64,000 bases of DNA from Bacilli bacterium (GCA_036667875.1 JAVWTD010000001.1:5767-69766), one strand, 5' to 3'. Shown: positions 3,993-50,630, counted from the first letter of the stretch. Numbers and translations are program-made. The notes: a model not told the origin generated them from the letters alone.

Positions 3993-4595
3993 ATGAGAGA
4001 AAAAGTTATTGAAAAATATGTTTCATTTCTTCTTAAGTATCATACTTATAGTAGAAAAGAAATACTTACAATCCGATATGGAGTAGAAAATACTTTATTA
4101 TTTTTAGAAAAGATTATTATTATTTTAGTAATAGGATATTTATTAGGAATTTTAAAGATAATGTGTATTTTCATGTTATTTTATATGGGAATTAAGACTT
4201 TCTCTGGTGGGATGCATGCAAGCAGCAGCTTTAGTTGTCTCTTAATTTCTTTAGTTATATTTATTGCATCCCCTATCATTGGAGTACATGTATATTTTAC
4301 ATTATTAGAAAAATTTTTGATATCGTTATTCGTTTTTGCTATATTTCTAATATACAGTCCTGCAGATACTCATAAAAAACCAATTAGAGGTCCTAAAATT
4401 AAAATGCTAAAGATCAAGTCTCTTATAATTATTGATCTTTATTGCATATCTAGTTTTTTCGTTACGAATTATATTGGCAATCTATTAATTATAAGTTTGT
4501 TGGTTCAAGCTTGTATGATATCGCCAATTCCATATAAATTATTTGGATTGCCATATAATAATGGAAGGAGAGAAAAAGATGAAAATTTTAGCTGA
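3993..4595 (+). CDS. agrB: AgrB-family accessory gene regulator protein B (AIP precursor processing peptidase, membrane)
   Basis: 200-aa polytopic membrane protein. The KTFSGGMHASS region resembles the AgrB catalytic His/Cys segment. Its 3' end overlaps a small AgrD-like ORF. Confidence 0.7.
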   Translation: MREKVIEKYVSFLLKYHTYSRKEILTIRYGVENTLLFLEKIIIILVIGYLLGILKIMCIFMLFYMGIKTFSGGMHASSSFSCLLISLVIFIASPIIGVHVYFTLLEKFLISLFVFAIFLIYSPADTHKKPIRGPKIKMLKIKSLIIIDLYCISSFFVTNYIGNLLIISLLVQACMISPIPYKLFGLPYNNGRREKDENFS

Positions 4596-4698
4596 CCTTT
4601 TAGGAAAAATAACTCTATCTTTTGGAACATTAGGTGTTACTTATACTTCATGGTTTGTGTTTGATGAAGCTGAATGTCCAGAAGAAATTAATAACTAA
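4579..4698 (+). CDS. agrD: AgrD-like autoinducing peptide precursor (39 aa), absent from the ORF track
   Basis: GGAAGGAG RBS at 4564-4571, ATG at 4579. Translation: MKILADLLGKITLSFGTLGVTYTSWFVFDEAECPEEINN. It has an amphipathic leader, a hydrophobic core YTSWFVF, and an acidic Pro-containing tail DEAECPEE like the staphylococcal DEVEVPKEL tail. A Ser lies five residues before the acidic tail. Confidence 0.6.
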   Translation: MKILADLLGKITLSFGTLGVTYTSWFVFDEAECPEEINN

Positions 4699-4802
4699 GG
4701 AAATTTAAAAAGTTGCTTATCTTGCAAAAAAAAATTGATGATTGGAATTTTAATTCTTTTCATCAGTTTTTTTATATATAATACTTGTATTAAAAAGAAT
4801 TG

Positions 4803-6149
4803 CTATTTTGTAGTAATTCTTTCTTTTTTAGGATATTTATTATTTTTTTTGTAAATTAATGTAAGTTTAATAACATTACCATATATTTTCCTATTGAGTG
4901 TGTATTGAGGATTCTTTTTTAATAATTCATTTACAATTGTAAGTCCATGTCCTCTACCTTCACCATTTGTAGAATAGCCATCTTGAGTCATTTTTTCTAA
5001 ATCAATTTTTCCTTTAAAGGTATTTGATATTGCAATAATAAAATTTTTGTTTTCTAGGTAGGCTTCTATTCCTAAGTATGGTGCTCTATCTAATTTTTGT
5101 TTTTCTAATTCTTGCATTGCATTATCTACAAGAATATTGAATATTTGAGTAATTTTTGCTCCTTCTGTATCATCGATGTATTCATCAGGTAACTTTCTTA
5201 AATCATCATCTATTTTATAAATTACAAATATATTTTTTCTATGTGCTTCAACTATTTTATTATATATTGCGGATTTTAAACTAAGACAATCTATTTTATA
5301 TGCTTCAAATTTAATATTTTCATCATCTTTTATTTTTTTCTTTTTTTCAAAAGAGTTACCAACTAAATCAATGTAATTTTTAACTTTTTGTTCATTAGTC
5401 ATTGCTCTTATTGTACAAAGAATATTATTGTTTTCATGATTTTTTAATCTGTAATCATCAACCATTTTACAAGCATCTTTTTGTGATATTTTCATCATTT
5501 TTGTATCTTCTTTTAATTCACATTTTTCTTGCTCACTTTTATAAAGATACCCTGCTACCATAAACATTGATAAAAAAGATATAATAGTAAGAAATACATT
5601 AAATAAAATACTATCATGAATAAAGTTTGTTATCAAAAGATATGAAAATATAATTAAAAATGTATAAAGAATAAATAATAATGTTTTACTATTAAATCTT
5701 ATAAATTTCTCTGATAAGAAGTCATAACAAATTTTAAGAAATTTAGTTTTAGACAAAATTAATATTGAAATTAAGAAGACAATGTTAAAGACATCAAGAC
5801 TGTAAGATGCCATAAATTCTACGGTTGTCTTATAACCAAATATAAAAATTATTGATATTGAAGTTAAAAGTTCTATACCGGCTATAAAACAATCTATAAA
5901 GATTATTGAAAAGACTATTTCTTTATTACTTTTTTCATATATTGATTTTATTGCTAAATACATTGCTCCAGTTGTCAAAAAAAATGCAAAATCAGTTATA
6001 TTTACAAAGTATTTTATTGAAGGAACAATTAACATTATTAATGATCCTAATGTAAGTTTAATTAGTTTAGGTTTTTGGTCAAAGAATTCTCCTATTATTA
6101 GAAGTATAATTATATTTCCTATTAAAGTTATTATTGTTGAGAATGGCAT
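4803..6149 (-). CDS. agrC: AgrC-like sensor histidine kinase (polytopic N-terminal sensor, GHKL ATPase C-terminal, HPK10 type)
   Basis: 448 aa. The N-terminal ~200 aa carry 5-6 TM helices. The C-terminus has NGEGRGHGLTIVNELL, a G-box-like ATP-lid. It sits directly upstream of, and overlaps, the LytTR regulator gene. Confidence 0.7.
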   Translation of the reverse strand: MPFSTIITLIGNIIILLIIGEFFDQKPKLIKLTLGSLIMLIVPSIKYFVNITDFAFFLTTGAMYLAIKSIYEKSNKEIVFSIIFIDCFIAGIELLTSISIIFIFGYKTTVEFMASYSLDVFNIVFLISILILSKTKFLKICYDFLSEKFIRFNSKTLLFILYTFLIIFSYLLITNFIHDSILFNVFLTIISFLSMFMVAGYLYKSEQEKCELKEDTKMMKISQKDACKMVDDYRLKNHENNNILCTIRAMTNEQKVKNYIDLVGNSFEKKKKIKDDENIKFEAYKIDCLSLKSAIYNKIVEAHRKNIFVIYKIDDDLRKLPDEYIDDTEGAKITQIFNILVDNAMQELEKQKLDRAPYLGIEAYLENKNFIIAISNTFKGKIDLEKMTQDGYSTNGEGRGHGLTIVNELLKKNPQYTLNRKIYGNVIKLTLIYKKNNKYPKKERITTK

Positions 6150-6853
6150 AATATATCTAACTCCTTTTTATATTTTAATGATAATAGATCTACTTCTAAT
6201 CCTGTATCAAATTTTATACTTTTCTTTTTCTTATTGATAGCTACAATTCTTTTTAAATTAACAAAACCAGATTTGTGAGTTTGAACAAAATTTTCATCAA
6301 AATATCTTCTAACTTCAATTAATGTTTTGCTTATCTCATAAGTTCCATTATCTGTAACTATTTCTGTTTTTCTACTAACATTTTCTCTTGAAATATATAA
6401 AACACTTTGTTGTCTAAAATAATAATTTGTTGATTTAGTAATTATTTCTACTACATCGTTTTTTATATCATTTTTTATTATATAATTTAATACATTTTCT
6501 AATCTATTTTTTGTATCTTTATTCTTTGTTATAAAAGATGTGATAAATAAATCTAAAGTCAATATTTCTTCTGCTGATTTTTCGTGACTGGTTAACATAA
6601 TAATATGACTTTTTAAGTCACGACTTCTTATCTTTCTTGCTGCTTCAATTCCGCTGCCTGTTGGTGTTTCAATATCTAAAATATATATTTTGTTTTTATT
6701 ATTTAAATAAGTTGCATCGTAAAACACTTGATTATAGTCATTGAATTTAGAAATCTTATATTCTATTTTTTCTTTCAATAAATAATCGTCTATTACTTCA
6801 ATAACTTTATCAACATATATATCATTATCATCGCAAATAATAATTTCAAGCAT
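6131..6853 (-). CDS. agrA: LytTR-family response regulator (AgrA/ComE-like)
   Basis: MLEIIICDDNDIYVDKV... is a receiver domain with DD and K residues. The C-terminal ~100 aa (FRQQSVLYISRENVSRKTEIVT...FVQTHKSGFVNL) is typical LytTR. Confidence 0.8.
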   Translation of the reverse strand: MLEIIICDDNDIYVDKVIEVIDDYLLKEKIEYKISKFNDYNQVFYDATYLNNKNKIYILDIETPTGSGIEAARKIRSRDLKSHIIMLTSHEKSAEEILTLDLFITSFITKNKDTKNRLENVLNYIIKNDIKNDVVEIITKSTNYYFRQQSVLYISRENVSRKTEIVTDNGTYEISKTLIEVRRYFDENFVQTHKSGFVNLKRIVAINKKKKSIKFDTGLEVDLLSLKYKKELDILCHSQQ

Positions 6854-7112
6854 AATTTTAACCTCCGTTACAACACCTCATGTTGTTAACTATATTAAGT
6901 GTACATTATTTAGAAGTAAATTACAATATTAAAAAGACATTATATGTATCTTTACATGTCTTTTTTGCCATATAATCTAAAACAGATTATGGGTTTTATA
7001 ACATAATAATTTTAATATTTTTTCTTTTCTTTTAGCAATTAAATTATACCATAATTATAGAGTTGTTTTTATAATTTAACTTATTTTTTTTATAAACAAA
7101 ATAAAAAGGATG

Positions 7113-7763
7113 TTATTTCCATCCTTCATACCAATTTTTAATTTTAGTTTTTCCATTATCAATTATTTCTTTGCTTTTTTCTTTTATTTCATTTCCTTTT
7201 TCTTTTACTTCATCAACGGTTTCTTTATATTTATCTTCTCCTACTTTTTCTATAACTTTTTCTTCTAAAAATTCTTTGGTAGACTTTATTTTTTCTTCTA
7301 CATAGATTAACACTTTTCCTGTTTTATCTTTTGTAGTTTCTTTATAATCTGGAATTTTCTTTTCAATTTTTGAATCAATACTGCTAGTTATATTTAAAAT
7401 TTTAGTTTTTGTTGTTTCATTTAATTCGTCAAAAGTAATCCCTTTTATTTCTCCGTTGTAAAATAAGAAGTCAACCAGGTTCACAAATATCTCTTTAGAA
7501 CCTTCTTTAAGTTTATCGAAACTATTGTTTTCCAAAATTTCATTTACTTCACTTTCTTTTTCTTCGAAGTAGTTTATAACATATTCATCCTTATTTTTGA
7601 TTTCTTCTGATTTATCTACATAATCTGTTATTTCAATAATATCATTTTTTGGTTCATTGTTTTCAATTTCTTTTTTATTTGTACAACCTGTTGTTACTAG
7701 AACAAAGCCTGTTAATATTACAAAAACAATTTTTTTTACATTAACATTTTTCATATTAGTCAC
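7113..7763 (-). CDS. lipoprotein, Lys/Glu-rich, function unknown
   Basis: Signal peptide with lipobox LVTTGC. Highly charged repetitive mature region. Confidence 0.5.
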   Translation of the reverse strand: MTNMKNVNVKKIVFVILTGFVLVTTGCTNKKEIENNEPKNDIIEITDYVDKSEEIKNKDEYVINYFEEKESEVNEILENNSFDKLKEGSKEIFVNLVDFLFYNGEIKGITFDELNETTKTKILNITSSIDSKIEKKIPDYKETTKDKTGKVLIYVEEKIKSTKEFLEEKVIEKVGEDKYKETVDEVKEKGNEIKEKSKEIIDNGKTKIKNWYEGWK

Positions 7764-7781
7764 CTCAGTGATATTGTACTA

Positions 7782-8084
7782 CTAATCATCATTTTTTACA
7801 ATAATATCTTTTATTTCATTTATCATAATTTTTTCATTTTCCATTGTTAGTAAATAATCTTTTGTTTTAGCTATTATTTTTTTGTTTATTACTTTATTTT
7901 CTAATTGAATTTCAACATCCATTTTATAAATATACTTTGACGATTTAAATATTTCTGCTATTTTCTTTTGTATAGATATAGGATTTTCTTTTGATGGTTT
8001 AGGATTTTCACCATAAACATATTTTTTGTTATTCATATTATTTTTAATTACAGTATTTTGAAATACTTTTGGAAGTTTTTTCAT
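7782..8084 (-). CDS. hypothetical protein (100 aa)
   Basis: ORF lies between the SGNH hydrolase and lipoprotein genes with an 18-bp spacing, so it is probably co-transcribed. No motif recognised. Confidence 0.35.
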   Translation of the reverse strand: MKKLPKVFQNTVIKNNMNNKKYVYGENPKPSKENPISIQKKIAEIFKSSKYIYKMDVEIQLENKVINKKIIAKTKDYLLTMENEKIMINEIKDIIVKNDD

Positions 8085-8130
8085 TTTTTCATCACCTATT
8101 TAAGTATATGAAAAAAATAGTAAAATCTTA

Positions 8131-9354
8131 CTATTTTTGATACATATGTGTTTGAAAATATTCCATTGCTTTTTTATTACCAGTTTCTGACAAATGAACA
8201 CCTGATTCGTTTGATGCTTCTCTATAATATCCTTTTTTTAATTGTCCATTTTCATCTTTTAAAATTCTTGAAGTATTTAAGAAAGGTATTTTCATTTCAC
8301 TACATAATTTTAACAAATAATAATTCATTTTATTTATTTTTTGATTATTTAATTGCTTTCCTTCACTGTCAAACCTAGAAGCGACTGGAAAAATAGATTG
8401 GACTATAATAACTCCTTCTGGATTTTTTTCTTTCATAGATTTTAATAATTCTTGAAATTTTGTTATAAAATAGTCTATTTCCATTGCTGCAACGCTGTTT
8501 GTTCCTAGACTTAGCAGTAAATATTTTGGTTTTTTTTCTTCATAAGCATCAATCAAAGTTTTTTTTGAATCTATATGATTAATATAAATTGTATTATTGA
8601 ATATTGTTTCTAAATTAACTCCCTCTCTATGCCATAATTGTTTACCGGTTATGTTTTTATTCATGACATAGTATAAAGCAGTTGAATCTCCTGCAAAGAT
8701 AAATTTATTACTATATTCTTCTTTACCATTTTTTGTTTCTTGCAATTGTATATCCTTATAATAAGAATCTAAACTAAATTCTTTTAAATTCATTGTTAAT
8801 GGTGAAGATTTTGTAACTTCTACTTTTCTTTTTTCAATAGCCCTATTACCATTTGAATCGGTTACACTATATTTTATTGTATAGATTCCTTCTTTTTTTG
8901 TATCAACAGTTCCCTCAGTGATGACTTTATCTTTTAAATTACCATCATAATTATCGATAGCGGCATATCCTGGATCATTAAATTTTTCATTAATAATGAC
9001 TACTATACTATTTCCTTCTTTTAATGTAATAATAGGTTTGGATAGGTCTTTCACTTCAATTTTTAAATTTCTTTGATATGTTCTGTTTTTATGTTTATAT
9101 TTAAAATTAATTTTATAAGTACCTAATTCTTTATTATTTATATTACTTTTAATTTTAATGTTACTTTGAATTCTTTTTCCATTAAATGTTGCTGTGTATT
9201 GATCTTTAAATTTTTCATTTAAATCAATAGACTTTGTTTTTAAAACAACTTTAAAAGGATAACTTTGAATATAAAACAATGTATAACCCACTATTACCAA
9301 AGTAATTAATAACAATGCAAAATTTTTTTTCTTTAATTTCTTTTTCTTTACCAT
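8131..9354 (-). CDS. membrane-anchored SGNH/GDSL-family hydrolase with an Ig-like (DUF5011-type) domain
   Basis: N-terminal TM. The central PIITLKEGN...DPGYAAIDNYDGN...YTIKYSVTDSNGN is DUF5011-like Ig. The C-terminus has FAGDST (block I), LSLGTNS (block II) and SGVHLSETG (block V-like). Confidence 0.6.
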   Translation of the reverse strand: MVKKKKLKKKNFALLLITLVIVGYTLFYIQSYPFKVVLKTKSIDLNEKFKDQYTATFNGKRIQSNIKIKSNINNKELGTYKINFKYKHKNRTYQRNLKIEVKDLSKPIITLKEGNSIVVIINEKFNDPGYAAIDNYDGNLKDKVITEGTVDTKKEGIYTIKYSVTDSNGNRAIEKRKVEVTKSSPLTMNLKEFSLDSYYKDIQLQETKNGKEEYSNKFIFAGDSTALYYVMNKNITGKQLWHREGVNLETIFNNTIYINHIDSKKTLIDAYEEKKPKYLLLSLGTNSVAAMEIDYFITKFQELLKSMKEKNPEGVIIVQSIFPVASRFDSEGKQLNNQKINKMNYYLLKLCSEMKIPFLNTSRILKDENGQLKKGYYREASNESGVHLSETGNKKAMEYFQTHMYQK

Positions 9355-9387
9355 ATTCTCACCATATTTTCTTCTATTCTAATTATA

Positions 9388-10167
9388 TCATAATTTTCTT
9401 GTAATAGTATATCCGATTAGTAATAATGCTAAACCTAAAGATATATTTAAAAAATTATAAGGATGACTAAGTGTTTCTTTTAAAATAATAAGGCTAGTGG
9501 ATATTGATAAACCAAAAATTGTATAATATGATTCATATTTAAACTTGTTAAGTACATAATATATTAATTTTGCAAACATAATTACACCAATTATAATACC
9601 AAGGATAAAAAACAGAAATAAAGGAAATTCAAATGTTGAAACTATTTTTAATAATTTTTTATAAATACCTAATGATGAAAAGATTGCAAATCCACTTATT
9701 CCTGGTATTATTGTTGTTAAAGCTTCTATAATTCCTACAATAATAATTGAAAATAGATTTAACTCGATATTAAAATGAAATTTAATTGTACTTAGGAATA
9801 ATAATACTGTAATAGGAAATAATAAAAATAGTATATTTTTTAAGTTTTTCTCTTCTTTGGTAATTTTGTAGATACTAGGTAAACCTCCAAGAATTAAACC
9901 AATAAATAAAAACATTGTTTGAATATAATACTTATTTAATAAAGAGTACATGAACTTGCTTAAAAACATTATAGAAATAACTAGTCCAATTAAAAATTGA
10001 AATAAAAATTTTGCATCATTTTTTTTAATTTTAAGTGGGTTTCCAATAATAAATAGTAATCTATCATATATGTTTAATGAAATAGCTATTAAACTCCCGC
10101 TTACTCCTGGAATTATTTTTCCAGTTCCTACTAAAAGACCTTTAAGAATATTTTTCAAGACCATCAC
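9388..10167 (-). CDS. polytopic membrane protein, possibly DUF368 (PopT-like polyprenyl-phosphate transporter) family
   Basis: 259 aa with ~8 TM helices and two repeated G-x-SG motifs (IPGVSGSLIAISL, IPGISGFAIFSSL) reminiscent of the duplicated GxSRSG motif of DUF368. The assignment is tentative. Confidence 0.35.
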   Translation of the reverse strand: MMVLKNILKGLLVGTGKIIPGVSGSLIAISLNIYDRLLFIIGNPLKIKKNDAKFLFQFLIGLVISIMFLSKFMYSLLNKYYIQTMFLFIGLILGGLPSIYKITKEEKNLKNILFLLFPITVLLFLSTIKFHFNIELNLFSIIIVGIIEALTTIIPGISGFAIFSSLGIYKKLLKIVSTFEFPLFLFFILGIIIGVIMFAKLIYYVLNKFKYESYYTIFGLSISTSLIILKETLSHPYNFLNISLGLALLLIGYTITRKL

Positions 10168-10280
10168 CTATTAAAATATATGCTTATATTGCAAAGTTTT
10201 GTCAATCAAATTAAATATTTTATCATTCTAATTGTTTTTATGTTTTATTTATTATAAACTATGTATAGTAGAGGTGTTTT

Positions 10281-12086
10281 ATGGAACAAAAAGAAATAGT
10301 CGATAGTAACGATTCAACTACAAATCAAAATATAACTGAACCTAATCTAAGTAATGATAAAAAAAATGAGACAGATTTATCTGTTCAGCCACTTAATATT
10401 GATAATACTGTGGAAAACTTGTCATTAGACGAAAATAATCAAGAAAAAGATAATGAGTTGATTATGGATGCTGTGGAAAAAACTAATGTGGATGATAATG
10501 AAAATAGTTTTACTGTGGAAAACAATAATGTAGATGATGAAAAAAATACTTTTACTGTGGAAAACAATAATGTAGATAATGGAAAAAAGAAAAAAATGTT
10601 ATTTGTTCTTTTAATTATTGCTTTTCTTTTAATCTTTATTTTTGCGGGATATAAGGTTAATGAATTTGTTCAAAAGAAAAAAACGGAAAATAAAAAACCT
10701 CCAATTATAATTGATAAAGATGATGATAAAGACAAAGAAGATAATGATAAGTTTGTACCAGAAGTAGTTTCAAATATTGATGTCATTTCTGTTTCTAGTG
10801 CTATTAATGAAGGCGTTTTGGCTGATGATTATTATTTTTCAGACTCTGTTTTTATAGGGGATAATACTATTTCAAAATTTAATAGTTATCTTTCAACTAA
10901 ACCTAATGGATTTTTAGGGAAACCATTTATCTTATATGATTCAAAGTTAAGTACTAATACTTTAGTTTCAGAAGTTAATGAAAAGTCTAATCATCCAGTT
11001 TATAATGGCACTAAAATGCTTGTTGAAGATAGTGTCAAGTTAATGGGAGCGAAGAAAGTATTTATTAATTTAGGGCATAATGATATTTTAAGTTCTGGTA
11101 TTAATAATACATTATCAAATTATAAAACTCTAATTAGTAGGATAAAAACAAAGAATCCTAATACAAAAATTTTTATTATTAATGTTGGTTATATGTTTAA
11201 AGGAACAGAGACAAAAAAAATGAATAATACTTTAATAAGAGAATTAAATGAAAAACTAAAAAACAGTTCTGCTACATGGGGTGCAATTTATATAGATATG
11301 GCTCATACAATGATAGAAAGTAATGGTTATTTAAAAGAAGAATTTTATTCTGAAGAGTCTTTACTTATTAATAATCTTGGTTATAATGTATGGGTAAATG
11401 TTCTTAGAAGAATTGCTTCTACTCAGATTGAAGCTGAAATTTTAAGCACTGCTTCATCTTTATTAAAAGCTTGTGAAACTAGTCCTTCGTATGATGCATA
11501 TAACAAGGCAGTAAAGGCTGTTGATAGAGTTCCTGAAGGAATTGCTAAAGTAGACTTTAAAAACCGTTTAATCAAGGTCTTAGCGGTTATTGAAGCTAAT
11601 TATAGTAATAAACTTACTGAAATTAAAATAAACAATGTAGCAATCGCTCTTACTAGTGGTAACTATAATTATTCTTACAATGTTCCAAATGATGCTTCAA
11701 CTGTTAATATATCAGTTAAAAAAATAAGTAATAACGCAATTGTTGAAGGTGAGGGGAATGTTAATTTAAATTTAGGAGAAAATATTTTAAAAATCATCGT
11801 AAAAAATAATGGTGAGATTATTACATATACTTTGAAAATATATAGAGCCTATGATGATAGTATTTTAAAAGTTACTATTGATAATAAGGATATAGGTTTA
11901 GATACTTTATCTTTAACTGTTCCAGCACAAGTTTCTAGTGTAATTTTAAAAGTAACTCCAACTTATTCTGGGGCAACAGTAACAGGGGAAGGTACTTTGA
12001 GTTTGGTAACCGGTACTAATACCTTCAAATTCAAAGTTTATGAAAAGATTTATACTTTAACAATTATTAGAGAGGTTAGTTCTTAA
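10281..12086 (+). CDS. membrane-anchored SGNH-like protein with an Asn/Asp-rich N-terminal region and C-terminal beta-rich repeats; catalytic Ser apparently replaced (GDN)
   Basis: AGAGGTG RBS. Has N-terminal TVENNNVD repeats, a single TM (LFVLLIIAFLLIFIFAGY), FIGDNTIS (block I with N in place of S), NLGHNDI (block III) and DMAHT (block V). The C-terminal 200 aa show repeated Ig-like segments. Confidence 0.5.
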   Translation: MEQKEIVDSNDSTTNQNITEPNLSNDKKNETDLSVQPLNIDNTVENLSLDENNQEKDNELIMDAVEKTNVDDNENSFTVENNNVDDEKNTFTVENNNVDNGKKKKMLFVLLIIAFLLIFIFAGYKVNEFVQKKKTENKKPPIIIDKDDDKDKEDNDKFVPEVVSNIDVISVSSAINEGVLADDYYFSDSVFIGDNTISKFNSYLSTKPNGFLGKPFILYDSKLSTNTLVSEVNEKSNHPVYNGTKMLVEDSVKLMGAKKVFINLGHNDILSSGINNTLSNYKTLISRIKTKNPNTKIFIINVGYMFKGTETKKMNNTLIRELNEKLKNSSATWGAIYIDMAHTMIESNGYLKEEFYSEESLLINNLGYNVWVNVLRRIASTQIEAEILSTASSLLKACETSPSYDAYNKAVKAVDRVPEGIAKVDFKNRLIKVLAVIEANYSNKLTEIKINNVAIALTSGNYNYSYNVPNDASTVNISVKKISNNAIVEGEGNVNLNLGENILKIIVKNNGEIITYTLKIYRAYDDSILKVTIDNKDIGLDTLSLTVPAQVSSVILKVTPTYSGATVTGEGTLSLVTGTNTFKFKVYEKIYTLTIIREVSS

Positions 12087-12087
12087 A

Positions 12088-12120
12088 AAAAGATATAAAT
12101 TAAATTTATATCTTTTTTTT
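12088..12120. terminator. bidirectional rho-independent terminator between convergent genes
   Basis: AAGATATAAATT/AAATTTATATCTT perfect hairpin, flanked by an A-run upstream and a T-run downstream. Confidence 0.5.
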
Positions 12121-12441
12121 ATCTATGTCATGTACTATATTATAAATGCAAGAATAACTATGTTTTCCATAAAACTTATAAAACTTTCTTATTGATGCTG
12201 ATGATCTGGTATATAACTGTCTAATCTTTTTAATTTCTTCTTCACTTAAAGCGTTGTGAGGTGATTTATTTTTATTTCCATGGTCTAACGAAATTGTTCC
12301 ATTCAAAATTTCATTTTTAAGTTTAAAAAGATATTTAGGATGATATCCAGTTATAACAGAAATTTCTTCATAAGATAAATATGTATCATTAGCAATTTTT
12401 TTATTTATAAGTTTAATAGCTTCTTTTTTATCTTTTTTCAT
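12106..12441 (-). CDS. HTH-domain protein resembling the N-terminal DNA-binding part of a DDE transposase (no catalytic domain; possible IS remnant)
   Basis: GGTGA RBS upstream of ATG at 12441. MKKDKKEAIKLINKK...ISVITGYHPKYLFKLKNEILNGTISLDHGNKNKSPHNALSEEEIKKIRQLY follows a transposase N-terminal HTH/HGNxGxxPxNALSEE pattern. The ORF-track N-terminal extension to 12600 is probably spurious. Confidence 0.35.
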   Translation of the reverse strand: MKKDKKEAIKLINKKIANDTYLSYEEISVITGYHPKYLFKLKNEILNGTISLDHGNKNKSPHNALSEEEIKKIRQLYTRSSASIRKFYKFYGKHSYSCIYNIVHDIDKKKI

Positions 12442-12542
12442 TGTAGTATCACCTATTATAATTGTAACACTAGCTATGTATAATTGCAACAGAAAAGTAA
12501 TAAAATCGAATAAAGATAAATTTAAGGTAATAAATAAAATAG

Positions 12543-12679
12543 TTTTCCACAATATATGTGGAAAACTATTAATTCGTTTGTAGTATAAAGACTTTTCCAC
12601 AGTATTAAAGCATAAATTTTAGTGAAAACAACACTAATATAAGAATAATTAATAGTATAATAATTTTTACTGTGGAAAA
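12543..12679. promoter_or_regulatory. cluster of four DnaA-box-like 9-mers (TTTTCCACA/TGTGGAAAA), including a perfect inverted pair, ~50 kb from oriC
   Basis: TTTTCCACA at 12543-12551 and TGTGGAAAA at 12557-12565 form the palindrome TTTTCCACAATATATGTGGAAAA. Further boxes: TTTTCCACA at 12593-12601 and TGTGGAAAA at 12671-12679. Confidence 0.45.
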
Positions 12680-14632
12680 CTTTCTTGTTTCTTGTTTATT
12701 TGTATTTTCAGATAATTTATTTTCTATTGTTTTTCCTTTGTTTATATTTTCTTTTTCTCCATTATAACCAATAACAAAATATTCTTCATTGTTATTTATG
12801 GATTTATAAATTAAATTCATTATATTTTCAGAAAGAATTTTAATAAATTCTACTTTATATTCATTTTCATCATTGATTTTATCGCTTGGCTTTAAAATAA
12901 TTTCTTTATCTTTTAAACTATATACGTTAATTATGTTTTCTAAAATATTTTTTCTAATTTCATTTTCACATTGGTAAAGATAAAGAGCATTTTTTATGTT
13001 ATATTTCTTTGCTTTTTTGAAACTTTTCGTTATATATTCTAAAGTCTTAAATGGTAATATTTTATCTATTTCATATAAAACATATTTTGAATTGAATTCT
13101 GAAATGTTTTTGTAAGGATTTAGTTCTTTTGAATAAATAATTTTACTTATTACTTTATCGATTAGATGTTCTAAAGTATCAAATTCATAAATTCCTTTAA
13201 AATCAGTTAAAGCATTTTCAAAATAATAAAATTTATCATTTTTAAGATAAACTAAAAAGAAATGTGGATCAGTAATTACTGTTTTATTATCACTATTAAT
13301 TTCAGTGCATATCACAAATCTTTTTACCTTTATATTATTTGCTTCTAAAAAGCAAGCTTCAAATTCAATTTGTTCATTACTACTTGCTACTTCTGAATTA
13401 AAAATATCAAGTGGATAGTTTTGAGAATATATTTTATTTAGTATAAAGTTTGTTGTTGATATGCTTTTTAAAAGTTGTGTGACTTCAATTTGAGTAGGAT
13501 TTATTTCATTTTTATGTTTAGAATAATATTTATTTAAAAAAGCTATGATTTCTGGATTATCGTATGTTATTTTTTTATTATTTCTTCCCTCAATTGATTC
13601 TAAAGCACCAAAAGGTATTTTATATGTTTCCGAGTCTATTTCAACAGTTGTTCCATATTCAATATTATTTGACATATATTTTAATAATGATTCTTCATCT
13701 ACAATTGAGTAACTTCTAAATATTTCTAAAATCTTTTTATTATTATATTTTTTGATAAGGTTAAAATTGTTTTCTATTTTAGTTTTATATATTTTTGCTT
13801 CTTTTTGTTCTAACTCTAAATCAAAAATTTCTTCGATTTTTTTTAATTTCTTATCATCAAAATTTCTATTTATAAATTTTCCTATTTCTTCGTAATAATT
13901 TTTAAATAGACAATCAAGTAATGAATATTTGTCACAGATACAATTATTTAAATAGATATCATTTTCATTTAAGCCTTTAATTTTTTCTGTGTTTAAAAAA
14001 TTTGTAATAGGAAATAATTTAAAATTATTTCCATCACTTATTCCATAGGTATTTAAGCCTATATTATTGTTATCAATTAAAATATTAAATAATATCATTT
14101 TTATATATTCACTTTTAATTATTTTTGAATTTTCAATTGAGAGGGGAATTTCTATTACTTCAATAATATCTTTTGTATTTTTTTCTTTATCCATTTGAAT
14201 AATTTTGTCTATTGTTTTACATTCTTTTTCATTTGATGTTAATAGTATATAATTTTTATTTTCATATTTTATTCTTTTTATATCTACAACATTTAATTCT
14301 AATAGTTTACCAATCTTCATTAAAGCAATCTCTAAATCATTTAAAGTTAGTGATTTATGTGTTTTTAAATATCCCACATTATTATCTACTTCTACTTTTA
14401 TATTTTTTTTGCTTTTTTCTATAATTTTTATTTCTATATTTTTATTTTGATTATATTCATTTTTTTTGTTTTCAATATAAATATGGTTTTTAATGCTTTC
14501 TTCGATTAAATCTTCAATTTCATTTTTTGTATATTCTTTCGATTTAATTTCATTTCTTATTTTATTTTTTTCATCTATTTTTAGTATTGATTTTTCTTTT
14601 AATTTTGTTTCTAAAAATTCTTGATTATTCAT
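12605..14632 (-). CDS. large hypothetical protein (675 aa) with a C-terminal transmembrane anchor
   Basis: Lys/Asn/Glu-rich. The C-terminal KFSTVKIIILLIILILVLFSL is a TM helix. No confident family assignment. Its last codons carry one of the DnaA-box-like motifs. Confidence 0.5.
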   Translation of the reverse strand: MNNQEFLETKLKEKSILKIDEKNKIRNEIKSKEYTKNEIEDLIEESIKNHIYIENKKNEYNQNKNIEIKIIEKSKKNIKVEVDNNVGYLKTHKSLTLNDLEIALMKIGKLLELNVVDIKRIKYENKNYILLTSNEKECKTIDKIIQMDKEKNTKDIIEVIEIPLSIENSKIIKSEYIKMILFNILIDNNNIGLNTYGISDGNNFKLFPITNFLNTEKIKGLNENDIYLNNCICDKYSLLDCLFKNYYEEIGKFINRNFDDKKLKKIEEIFDLELEQKEAKIYKTKIENNFNLIKKYNNKKILEIFRSYSIVDEESLLKYMSNNIEYGTTVEIDSETYKIPFGALESIEGRNNKKITYDNPEIIAFLNKYYSKHKNEINPTQIEVTQLLKSISTTNFILNKIYSQNYPLDIFNSEVASSNEQIEFEACFLEANNIKVKRFVICTEINSDNKTVITDPHFFLVYLKNDKFYYFENALTDFKGIYEFDTLEHLIDKVISKIIYSKELNPYKNISEFNSKYVLYEIDKILPFKTLEYITKSFKKAKKYNIKNALYLYQCENEIRKNILENIINVYSLKDKEIILKPSDKINDENEYKVEFIKILSENIMNLIYKSINNNEEYFVIGYNGEKENINKGKTIENKLSENTNKQETRKFSTVKIIILLIILILVLFSLKFML

Positions 14633-49796: not shown

Positions 49797-49820
49797 AAAA
49801 AAAAGAGTATACTCTTTTTA
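49797..49820 (-). terminator. rho-independent terminator immediately after lgt
   Basis: mRNA sense: UAA-AAAGAGUAUACUCUUUUUUUU. A perfect AAGAGUA/UACUCUU hairpin plus U-run. Confidence 0.55.
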
Positions 49821-50630
49821 TTTGCTTTCTCTAAAATTATCGATGTCATGATATTGATTGGATAATTTTGAACCTTTACTAGATTTAATATATAGAAGTA
49901 AGCCGACTATAATCATAAAAAGCGAAACTATTTGAGCAATTTTAAATGATCCTAGCATTAAACTATCTGTTCTTAAAGATTCAACAAATAATCTTCCTAT
50001 TCCATACCAAACAAGATAGAATGAAGTAAGTTGGTTTACTTTTAAATACTTATATTTTCTTATTAATATAATAATAATAAATCCAACAAGGCACCAAAGT
50101 GATTCATAATAAAATGTTGGTTGATAATAATATCCATTAATTTTCATTCCTTCAATTACGAAATCTGGAACAAATAAAGATTTTAAAAATTCAATTGTAG
50201 TTCCTCCTCCATGAGCTTCACTATTGAAAAAATTACCCCATCTTCCTATTGCTTGTCCAATTAGTAATGCTGGAACTGTAAAATCAATAAAATATTTAAA
50301 ACTAATTTTATATTTTCTACAATAAAATATTATAAATAGAAGACCTGCTAGCAATCCACCATGTATTGCTAGACCACCTTCCCAAATTTTAAATATGTCA
50401 ATTAGATTTTTAGAATAATAACTAAAATTAAATAATACATAGTATATTCTTGCCCCAATTAATGAAATGGGTATTAACCAAAAAAACAAATTAAGTGTAA
50501 AGTTTTCAGGAATATCAAATTTTTTTGTTTCTTTTAAAACTATATTTCCACCAATAAGTAAGGCTAAAAAAATAAAAAAGGAATACCAATATATTTTTAT
50601 AAAACCGATATCTAATAAAATTGGATTCAT
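49818..50630 (-). CDS. lgt: prolipoprotein diacylglyceryl transferase
   Basis: IYWYSFFIFLALLIG, GARIYY, WEGGLAIHGG signature. Confidence 0.85.
   Translation of the reverse strand: MNPILLDIGFIKIYWYSFFIFLALLIGGNIVLKETKKFDIPENFTLNLFFWLIPISLIGARIYYVLFNFSYYSKNLIDIFKIWEGGLAIHGGLLAGLLFIIFYCRKYKISFKYFIDFTVPALLIGQAIGRWGNFFNSEAHGGGTTIEFLKSLFVPDFVIEGMKINGYYYQPTFYYESLWCLVGFIIIILIRKYKYLKVNQLTSFYLVWYGIGRLFVESLRTDSLMLGSFKIAQIVSLFMIIVGLLLYIKSSKGSKLSNQYHDIDNFRESK

Follow-up and report, generated by a model that had tools for sequence, protein, structure and literature searches.

Closest described systems

DUF368 proteins, identified as flippases only in 2022, are the PopT transporters of undecaprenyl phosphate (UndP) (10.1101/2022.02.03.479048; PMC9876793). 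Polyprenyl phosphate is the sole cargo demonstrated for these proteins, and the published analyses of their gene neighborhoods concern archaeal AglB glycosylation clusters only (10.1101/2022.02.03.479048). Other carrier flippases are encoded together with enzymes of pathways that release the carrier, as is the case for UptA in the lipoteichoic acid (LTA) glycosylation operons of Bacillus subtilis and for the DedA-PAP2 and DedA-UppP pairs. To our knowledge, nothing is known about the partners or the regulation of PopT/DUF368 flippases. In the present work, we analyzed a stretch of 64,000 nucleotides (the window) from a Bacilli bacterium (GCA_036667875.1 JAVWTD010000001.1:5767-69766), in which a DUF368 gene opens a minus-strand operon of four genes. 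The other products of the operon are an SGNH-fold ectoprotein with Ig-like domains (SGNH-Ig), a small soluble protein of 100 amino acids (orf100), and a lipoprotein, and a second SGNH-like protein (SGNH-2) is encoded divergently from it on the plus strand.

The likeness to the UptA and DedA systems extends to related loci, since BacA/UppP is encoded near DUF368 in L014 and L103. However, the partners in our operon are an ectoprotein, a small soluble protein, and a lipoprotein, with neither a glycosyltransferase nor a phosphatase among them. An outward-facing SGNH domain beside a polytopic protein, in a cell wall context, is also found in the MBOAT-SGNH and AT3-SGNH systems (PatA/PatB, OatA, and DltB/DltD) and recalls the Ape esterases; different from these, no MBOAT or AT3 gene lies within about 7 to 8 kb at the annotated loci examined, and DUF368 is not known as an acyl carrier. 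The literature searches returned no report that links DUF368 with an SGNH protein or with any small cytoplasmic partner, and the arrangement is undescribed in the searches made.

Our preferred reading, in which we place moderate confidence, is that the operon serves the polyprenyl-phosphate cycle (lipid II or wall polymer) in an accessory role, in a walled, rod-type, uncultured, low-GC gut bacterium of the Bacilli. Known families and one uncharacterized family are combined here in a new way; the novel elements are the conserved link between PopT and orf100, with SEDS proteins as the alternative partner, and the catalytic residues that the two SGNH proteins have lost one after another. Encoded behind popT, or beside SEDS genes, across many gut Bacilli, orf100 is a concrete and cheap candidate for a PopT partner; the host organisms are uncultured, and the impact of the proposal hinges on heterologous tests.

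Operon anatomy and the DUF368 protein

The four co-directional minus-strand open reading frames (ORFs) placed here by the preliminary description are all present and encode, in order, proteins of 259, 407, 100, and 216 amino acids (10167-9388, 9354-8131, 8084-7782, and 7763-7113), with gaps of only 33, 46, and 18 nucleotides between them. GGTGA-type Shine-Dalgarno-like sites precede the starts of SGNH-Ig, orf100, and the lipoprotein, and a terminator-like hairpin on the minus strand (7105-7127; an 8-bp stem with three GC pairs, followed by a T-rich tail) overlaps the stop codon of the lipoprotein gene and closes the operon. From gene packing, ribosome-binding sites, and terminator, the four genes read as one compact unit of transcription. 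DUF368 and SGNH-2 are separated by a divergent intergenic region of 113 nucleotides (10168-10280), which contains a single sigma-70-like match on the plus strand (10199-10226), which is weak evidence given the AT-richness of the DNA; likewise, the scan with the promoter consensus returned 70 matches against 49 expected and is uninformative at 24% G+C, which is approximately the G+C content of the whole window.

The first gene of the operon (9388-10167, minus strand) encodes a polytopic membrane protein of the DUF368/VCA0040-like family, as had been proposed. The profile search placed it in PF04018 with an E value of 2.1e-32 and 113.1 bits against a gathering threshold of 26, over profile positions 1 to 228 of 246. 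Several hydrophobic segments lie between residues 51 and 209, and two internal repeats, each with a PGxSG motif (GKIIPGVSGS at residues 16 to 25 and IIPGISGF at residues 153 to 160), give the protein the two-repeat polytopic organization; furthermore, the N-terminal residues 5 to 113 of DUF368 proteins from relatives also match the second half of the window protein, in a half-to-half repeat. PF04018 membership, size, polytopic topology, the twofold repeat, and the two PGxSG loops are all common to the PopT proteins of Staphylococcus aureus (SAOUHSC_00846) and Vibrio cholerae (VCA0040). However, the window protein reaches 90.4 bits with the NCBIfam PopT equivalog NF052563, whose cutoff is 400, and we therefore treat it as a family member and not as a certified equivalog, drawing its putative role as an UndP flippase from the published work on PopT. 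The sequence search with this protein against all PDB chains returned nothing usable.

A gene for a P-type cation ATPase (about 860 amino acids; Cation_ATPase_N/C and E1-E2 domains) lies on the same strand immediately before DUF368 in L001, L005 to L007, L010, L012, L020, L043, and L075; the window has no copy at that position.

Gene order in relatives

The conservation of gene order was examined in two collections of loci. The alignment scan of GTDB species representatives with SGNH-Ig gave 16 loci, each of them from an uncultured member of the Bacilli or "Tenericutes." DUF368 is immediately upstream of SGNH-Ig in 10 of the 16 species representatives, and orf100 is immediately downstream in 9 of them; the order DUF368, SGNH-Ig, orf100 holds down to 42 to 44% identity of SGNH-Ig, with different outer flanks, so that the gene order of the window is indeed kept across deeply diverged relatives.

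The second collection, a metagenome scan anchored on orf100, provided 61 loci with at least 900 nucleotides of upstream flank that could be classified. Immediately upstream of orf100 we found DUF368 on the same strand in 22 loci, SGNH-Ig on the same strand in 6 (with DUF368 further upstream in 5), a divergent SEDS gene of the FtsW/RodA type in 24, and other genes in 9, of which 6 have DUF368 within about 6 kb, often in the order orf100, LicD, and then DUF368 on the opposite strand. After pooling with the 12 loci already known to carry orf100 (L001, L004 to L008, L010 to L012, and L014 to L016) and dereplication at 70% identity of orf100, the 29 classifiable clusters comprised 12 with SGNH-Ig adjacent, 10 with DUF368, 3 with SEDS, and 4 with other genes, 3 of these last having DUF368 within about 5 kb. 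The adjacency of DUF368 and orf100 is kept down to 36 to 45% identity of orf100, while the outer flanks are swapped (P-type ATPase, LicD with a short-chain dehydrogenase [SDR], FeoB, or MetK). Thus, orf100, and not an SGNH enzyme, is the most persistent partner of DUF368, and the deepest link in the module is that between DUF368 and orf100.

Where the genes of the module stand in other company, their neighbors tie them to polyprenyl-phosphate-dependent envelope synthesis. Beside orf100, Pfam searches confirmed SEDS proteins (E values from 1e-44 to 1e-89), MurG, MurT, a GatD-like protein, and Lgt. Six of the 16 species have SGNH-Ig without a DUF368 neighbor; among them, L009, which lacks both DUF368 and orf100, has SGNH-Ig next to a MurJ/Polysacc_synt flippase, alanine racemase (Alr), and an ATP-grasp protein, and in L002 and L013 its neighbors are a Mur ligase, AsnB, and PBP5. 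BacA/UppP and LicD also belong to this set of neighbors.

It is possible to hypothesize, instead, that no pathway is shared and that a housekeeping gene for an UndP flippase sits, in a compact chromosome, beside unrelated envelope proteins whose order is synteny inherited within one clade. All the loci come from related uncultured Bacilli or "Tenericutes" genomes, components have been lost or swapped independently, and SGNH-Ig occurs without DUF368 in the six species just mentioned, as this explanation would have it. However, DUF368 and orf100 stay together while the outer flanks change completely, and an orf100 gene away from DUF368 lands beside SEDS, a gene of the lipid II cycle, and not beside a random gene; we consequently take this explanation seriously but deem it rather unlikely.

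LicD recurs beside orf100 or DUF368, often with an SDR, in L011, L015, L022, L026, L031, L034, L037, L039, L078, L083, and L096, and a cluster of Bac_transf with GT2 and GT4 genes abuts the module in L015; both observations hint at teichoic acid or capsule. They bear on a further alternative, in which the module serves a secondary wall polymer of this kind, DUF368 recycling its carrier and SGNH-Ig trimming or binding its acyl groups. Choline-binding repeats in some active relatives of SGNH-2 would fit such a function, and so would the known presence of flippases in the clusters of the pathways that they serve, namely, UptA in the case of LTA glycosylation and DUF368 in that of archaeal AglB (10.1101/2022.02.03.479048). 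We consider this alternative quite unlikely, as no LicD or glycosyltransferase gene adjoins the module in the window itself and the strongest alternative neighbors are genes for peptidoglycan synthesis (SEDS, MurG, MurT/GatD, MurJ-like, Alr, and PBP5).

Returning to the accessory operon of the polyprenyl-phosphate cycle, the following points weigh against it: the distance of the DUF368 protein from the PopT equivalog cutoff; the derivation of the synteny from one clade of related uncultured Bacilli, in which part of it may be inherited and not selected; the mix-and-match subsets of genes in L004, L009, L011, L014, and L016, which are looser than a fixed complex would be; and the recurrent LicD, SDR, and sugar transferase cluster, by which the polymer could be teichoic acid or capsule. 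As the polymer served, peptidoglycan has the strongest neighbors in its favor, but teichoic acid or capsule is also possible, given LicD, SDR, and Bac_transf.

The orf100 family and the proposed mechanism

The gene for orf100 (7782-8084, minus strand) is a real one, as the preliminary description had it: orthologs 36 to 52% identical to its product occur in dozens of loci. The protein has no hydrophobic segment and is presumably cytoplasmic, and it has a KKLPxVFAN stretch at the N terminus and a C-terminal domain, both of them conserved. The family counts 2,890 homologous clusters at 90% identity, the 120 best scoring of which are all without a Pfam domain; likewise, orf100 had no match in Pfam, in NCBIfam, or, by profile search, among PDB chains.

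A partial resemblance to the spore coat protein CotO was considered. In 4 of 11 orthologs, the C-terminal part of orf100 gave a subthreshold match to Spore_coat_CotO (PF14153), the best having an E value of 9e-4 and 19.7 bits against a gathering cutoff of 35, and the orf100 of the window gave no match to this family even at permissive thresholds. If orf100 were a CotO-like morphogenetic protein, the operon could belong to sporulation, with the SGNH protein and the lipoprotein acting on the peptidoglycan of the spore cortex. A protein with a SpoIID domain is encoded in the window, SEDS paralogs lie beside orf100, and in L052 an ORF resembling a sigma factor (read from its sequence, with no family search) follows. 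However, proteins with SpoIID domains are also known from outside sporulation, the approximately 40 window ORFs scanned included no further gene recognizable as a sporulation gene, and the adjacent PopT, UppP, and MurG have vegetative functions. The CotO reading of orf100 was not adopted, given that the score lies far below the cutoff and the window protein is unmatched, and we hold a role of the operon in sporulation to be very unlikely.

In the accessory operon that we propose, the DUF368 protein would, like PopT, return UndP to the cytoplasmic leaflet, and orf100 would be a cytoplasmic partner or regulator of lipid carrier membrane proteins, namely, PopT here and SEDS proteins in other lineages. 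SGNH-Ig would act in the wall compartment on nascent glycan, most likely as a weak Ser-His O-acetyl esterase or as a binder of acetylated glycan, with the helical lipoprotein as a partner on the outer face. SGNH-2 would be a recently inserted, noncatalytic surface protein that shares the promoter region and probably binds wall glycan and does not modify it. A bolder version, which we put forward tentatively and regard as unlikely in this full form, is that orf100 founds an unrecognized family of small cytoplasmic partners of the proteins by which the lipid carrier is consumed and recycled (PopT and, in other lineages, SEDS proteins), and that the operon encodes a PopT-centered assembly. In this assembly, the lipoprotein and the SGNH-fold ectoprotein, the latter increasingly noncatalytic, would link the recycling of the carrier with wall synthesis at the outer face.

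SGNH-Ig

The second gene of the operon (8131-9354, minus strand) encodes, as expected, an SGNH protein with Ig-like domains. Pfam searches, alignments, an AlphaFold model, and Foldseek describe a protein of 407 amino acids that is anchored by one N-terminal transmembrane (TM) helix and continues with two Ig-like domains and a C-terminal SGNH domain on the extracytoplasmic side; in particular, Bact_surface_Ig-like (PF16403, formerly DUF5011) was matched with an E value of 1.7e-26 and Lipase_GDSL_2 with one of 2e-10. The model has a predicted local distance difference test (pLDDT) score of 85.7, and Foldseek gave a probability of 1.0 to 2hsj, 6njc, 7pzg, and 4iyj, among matches that include sialate O-acetylesterases and PAF-AH Ib.

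Our assignments of catalytic residues, here and for SGNH-2, rest on alignments. Ser224, Gly245 (in EGV), Asn286 (in GTNS), and His387 of SGNH-Ig are kept, so that blocks I to III are present, and no exception to the GDS serine was seen in about 130 members of the family. In block V, however, the Asp is replaced by Ser384: the window protein has NESGVHL where other members have DGIH(L/P) and 2hsj has DGLH, a register borne out by the alignment to 2HSJ. The canonical DGIH(L/P) is found in more distant members of the family, and the Asp is replaced in the clade of the window. Ser-His dyads are functional in some SGNH/CE2 enzymes (PMC9487903), and catalysis by SGNH-Ig through such a dyad is possible. 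In a sister lineage, P0054 (represented by L102, 7001-8221, and by 21 clusters), block V has Tyr for His, block III has Asp for Asn, and block II has Lys for Gly, and the gene still stands between DUF368 and orf100 in the same operon; it follows that catalysis is unlikely to be what retains SGNH-Ig there.

The PAF-AH-like and O-acetylesterase members of the SGNH superfamily (2HSJ of Streptococcus pneumoniae, 6NJC and 7PZG of Bacteroides/Phocaeicola, PAF-AH Ib, and CE3) are the best matches, by sequence and by fold, for both SGNH domains of the window. The SGNH fold and the block III motif GxN(D/S) are common to the 2HSJ/6NJC/7PZG group and to both window domains; different from that group, SGNH-Ig is without the catalytic Asp and has, in addition, a TM anchor and two Ig-like domains, and SGNH-2 lacks both Ser and His. 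In the fold searches, both domains fell among PAF-AH-like and carbohydrate esterase folds of a generic kind, and no substrate was discriminated. The question of an intact triad, raised by the preliminary description, thus has a divided answer, in that the fold is present in both proteins and a complete triad in neither.

An enzymatic alternative would be that SGNH-Ig is an O-acyltransferase comparable to PatB or to the C-terminal domain of OatA, that receives its donor across the membrane from DUF368 rather than from a protein of the MBOAT or AT3 type, in a new two-component system of envelope acylation. The combination of a polytopic protein and an outward SGNH domain in one operon is formally like that of the MBOAT-SGNH and AT3-SGNH systems (PMC12148441, PMC9487903), and no source of a substrate for an esterase was identified. 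Against it, DUF368 has been shown to move polyprenyl phosphate only (10.1101/2022.02.03.479048), DUF368 and orf100 occur without any SGNH gene in 10 of the 29 clusters, the catalytic Asp is gone here and the His is gone in a sister lineage whose operon is retained, and the nearest folds are those of esterases (Ape1, 4k3u, being a weak fold match of SGNH-Ig, at rank 42). Moreover, Pfam searches recognized no MBOAT or acyltransferase-3 among the genes within about 7 to 8 kb in the window and in L001, L002, L004, L005, L102, and L103, which makes a transferase role of the PatB/OatA kind unlikely, and the erosion of catalytic residues in both SGNH proteins argues against an essential step of O-acyl chemistry. 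On this evidence we regard an acylation system as highly improbable. Of the lipid-linked glycopolymer modification pathway suggested beforehand, what stands is the use of the lipid carrier by an envelope module; nothing points to a distinct acylation pathway, with no MBOAT or AT3 gene found within that distance.

Both SGNH families illustrate that envelope SGNH "esterases" can lose catalytic residues stepwise and yet stay conserved in place, so that the automatic annotation "GDSL esterase/lipase" can mislead about the chemistry.

A second recurrent pair of an SGNH protein and a lipoprotein was observed in L017 to L019 and L021, the most distant SGNH-Ig loci, with no DUF368 nearby, where a DUF4358 lipoprotein follows SGNH-Ig (L017, 9363-9827; L018, 5304-5774; L019, 2353-2826; and L021, 11226-11675). 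The DUF4358 assignment is confirmed by Pfam for L017 only and is deduced from similar sequences for the other three. The literature searches on DUF5011 with GDSL and on DUF4358 returned no relevant report.

SGNH-2

The divergent gene (10281-12086, plus strand) encodes a second SGNH protein of 601 amino acids, with an acidic, low-complexity N terminus, one TM helix, an SGNH-fold domain, a helical region, and two beta-sandwich domains. The Pfam match is partial; the model, with a pLDDT score of 93.2, has its best Foldseek matches in 2HSJ, in 6njc and other sialate O-acetylesterases, and in PAF-AH Ib. The search of 1.8 billion representative proteins with the SGNH-like domain gave 2,415 relatives, and the consensus of 52 aligned members features GDS in block I, HP, GxND in block III, and SDxYVH in block V.

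Compared to this consensus, block I of SGNH-2 reads GDN, with Asn195 in place of the nucleophilic Ser, as had been noticed; its ortholog reads GDE, and GDS is present in 50 of the 51 other aligned members. Block III is kept (GHND, residues 265 to 268), in agreement with the preliminary description, which had considered block V kept as well. However, the DMAH stretch (D339-M-A-H342) aligns with a noncatalytic "DIAxxL" stretch of the family, and the true block V, SEE-SLLIN, has no His (INN-ERVIS in the ortholog); in the alignment to the sialate O-acetylesterase 6NJC, the DGLH of the latter stands opposite the ESLL of SGNH-2. With both nucleophile and base gone, SGNH-2 is, as judged from its sequence, a catalytically dead SGNH fold, a clearer case than the merely possible noncatalytic role first assigned to it. 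The only close ortholog is 47% identical, and conservation is highest in the SGNH-like domain (52% identity, compared to 22 to 43% elsewhere). Since the fold is intact and the dead domain is the best conserved, SGNH-2 looks like a pseudoenzyme under selection rather than a decaying gene.

Catalytically dead homologs of cell wall enzymes serve as regulators or binders, examples being the LytM-domain proteins EnvC and NlpD. SGNH-2 and the His-less lineage of SGNH-Ig likewise keep a conserved enzyme fold and lose the catalytic residues; however, they have another fold, no partner enzyme has been identified for them, and a regulatory role is suggested by analogy only.

The two SGNH proteins were considered as recent paralogs, and this relationship was rejected: their SGNH domains are 25% identical across a stretch of 114 residues (E value of 3e-07) and belong to different subfamilies. 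Nor do they frame the transporter as a conserved pair. Apart from this species, SGNH-2 was found in just one sister species, which has no SGNH-Ig, and in L008 and L102 the slot between orf164 (described below) and DUF368 is empty. Because of this restricted occurrence, we read SGNH-2 as a lineage-specific insertion and not as a conserved part of the module.

The cytoplasmic N terminus of SGNH-2 (10281-10600, plus strand) is acidic and of low complexity, contains a short tandem repeat (NSFTVENNNVDDEK / NTFTVENNNVDNGK), and is 22% identical in the ortholog.

Lipoprotein

The last gene of the operon (7113-7763, minus strand) encodes a lipoprotein of 216 amino acids, for which a signal peptide, a lipobox, and orthologs were all found, in line with its first identification. 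The hydrophobic segment spans residues 6 to 30, the lipobox VTTGC places the lipidated Cys at position 27, and Lgt is encoded in the window (49818-50630); an acidic linker follows, and then a conserved helical domain that ends with KxWYEGWK. Translation probably starts at the ATG at 7754, which GAGGTG precedes.

Orthologs occur in L001, L004 to L008, L010, L043, L075, and L102, with a TM-anchored version in L009; by collection, they were found in 4 to 5 of the 16 genome loci, in L001, L004, and L005, and in several metagenome loci. The lipobox ends with TGC or SGC in L004, L008, and L010, and the orthologs of L006 and L007 have no Cys and seem to be TM anchored. The lipoprotein had no match in Pfam, NCBIfam, or the PDB, and its orthologs gave, at permissive thresholds, only weak helical noise of the apolipoprotein/YtxH type. 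The sister species L004 has the order DUF368, orf100, lipoprotein, without SGNH-Ig, and in L011, L014, and L016 the lipoprotein is replaced.

In one subclade, the replacement 3' of orf100 is a Cys-rich protein of about 200 amino acids (CSECTYL...GKYYCEK...) without a Pfam match (L011, 11651-12262; L014, 11567-12172; L016, 4047-4646; and L103, 7406-8011).

Host and flanking genes

The closest database proteins come from metagenome-assembled genomes labeled "Bacilli bacterium," "Tenericutes," or "Erysipelotrichaceae." Between 29000 and 62300, the window encodes MreB, a SpoIID-domain protein, a protein of the EPSP_synthase family that we read as a MurA-type enzyme, an M23/LysM/G5 hydrolase, and Lgt. 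Given MreB, the MurA-type enzyme, the M23 hydrolase, and Lgt, the host is walled, and it is probably rod shaped, despite the "Tenericutes" labels of its relatives. A wall-less "Tenericutes" host was ruled out by these genes and by SEDS, MurG, MurB, and PBP5 in relatives. DnaB, ParB, GidA, MnmE, and YidC, which are origin-proximal genes, are also encoded in the window.

Beyond SGNH-2, on the upstream side of DUF368, lies orf164 (12106-12600, minus strand), whose product is probably of about 111 amino acids from the ATG at 12441 and whose membership in the module is uncertain. It had no family in Pfam or NCBIfam and is 62 to 76% identical in relatives, which makes it more conserved than any gene of the module; it is immediately upstream of DUF368 in L008 and L102 and one P-type ATPase gene away in many other loci. 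The product, as read from its sequence, is possibly helix-turn-helix-like and may be a regulator or a further member of the module. A hairpin with a perfect 14-bp stem (12538-12570) is located between the stop codon of the next gene, orf675, and the likely start of orf164. The product of orf675 (12605-14632, minus strand), 675 amino acids long, has a single C-terminal hydrophobic tail anchor and no family in Pfam or NCBIfam, and its gene is kept beside MetK in L004, L008, and L102.

On the other side, a complete agr-like quorum-sensing set (3993-6853) adjoins the operon. It consists of AgrB (3993-4595, plus strand), an AgrD-like peptide (about 4579-4698, plus strand) that contains TSWFVFDEAECPEEINN, a GHKL histidine kinase (4803-6149, minus strand), and a LytTR response regulator (6131-6853, minus strand). 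The set is kept downstream of the module in L001, L005 to L007, L010, L043, and L075.

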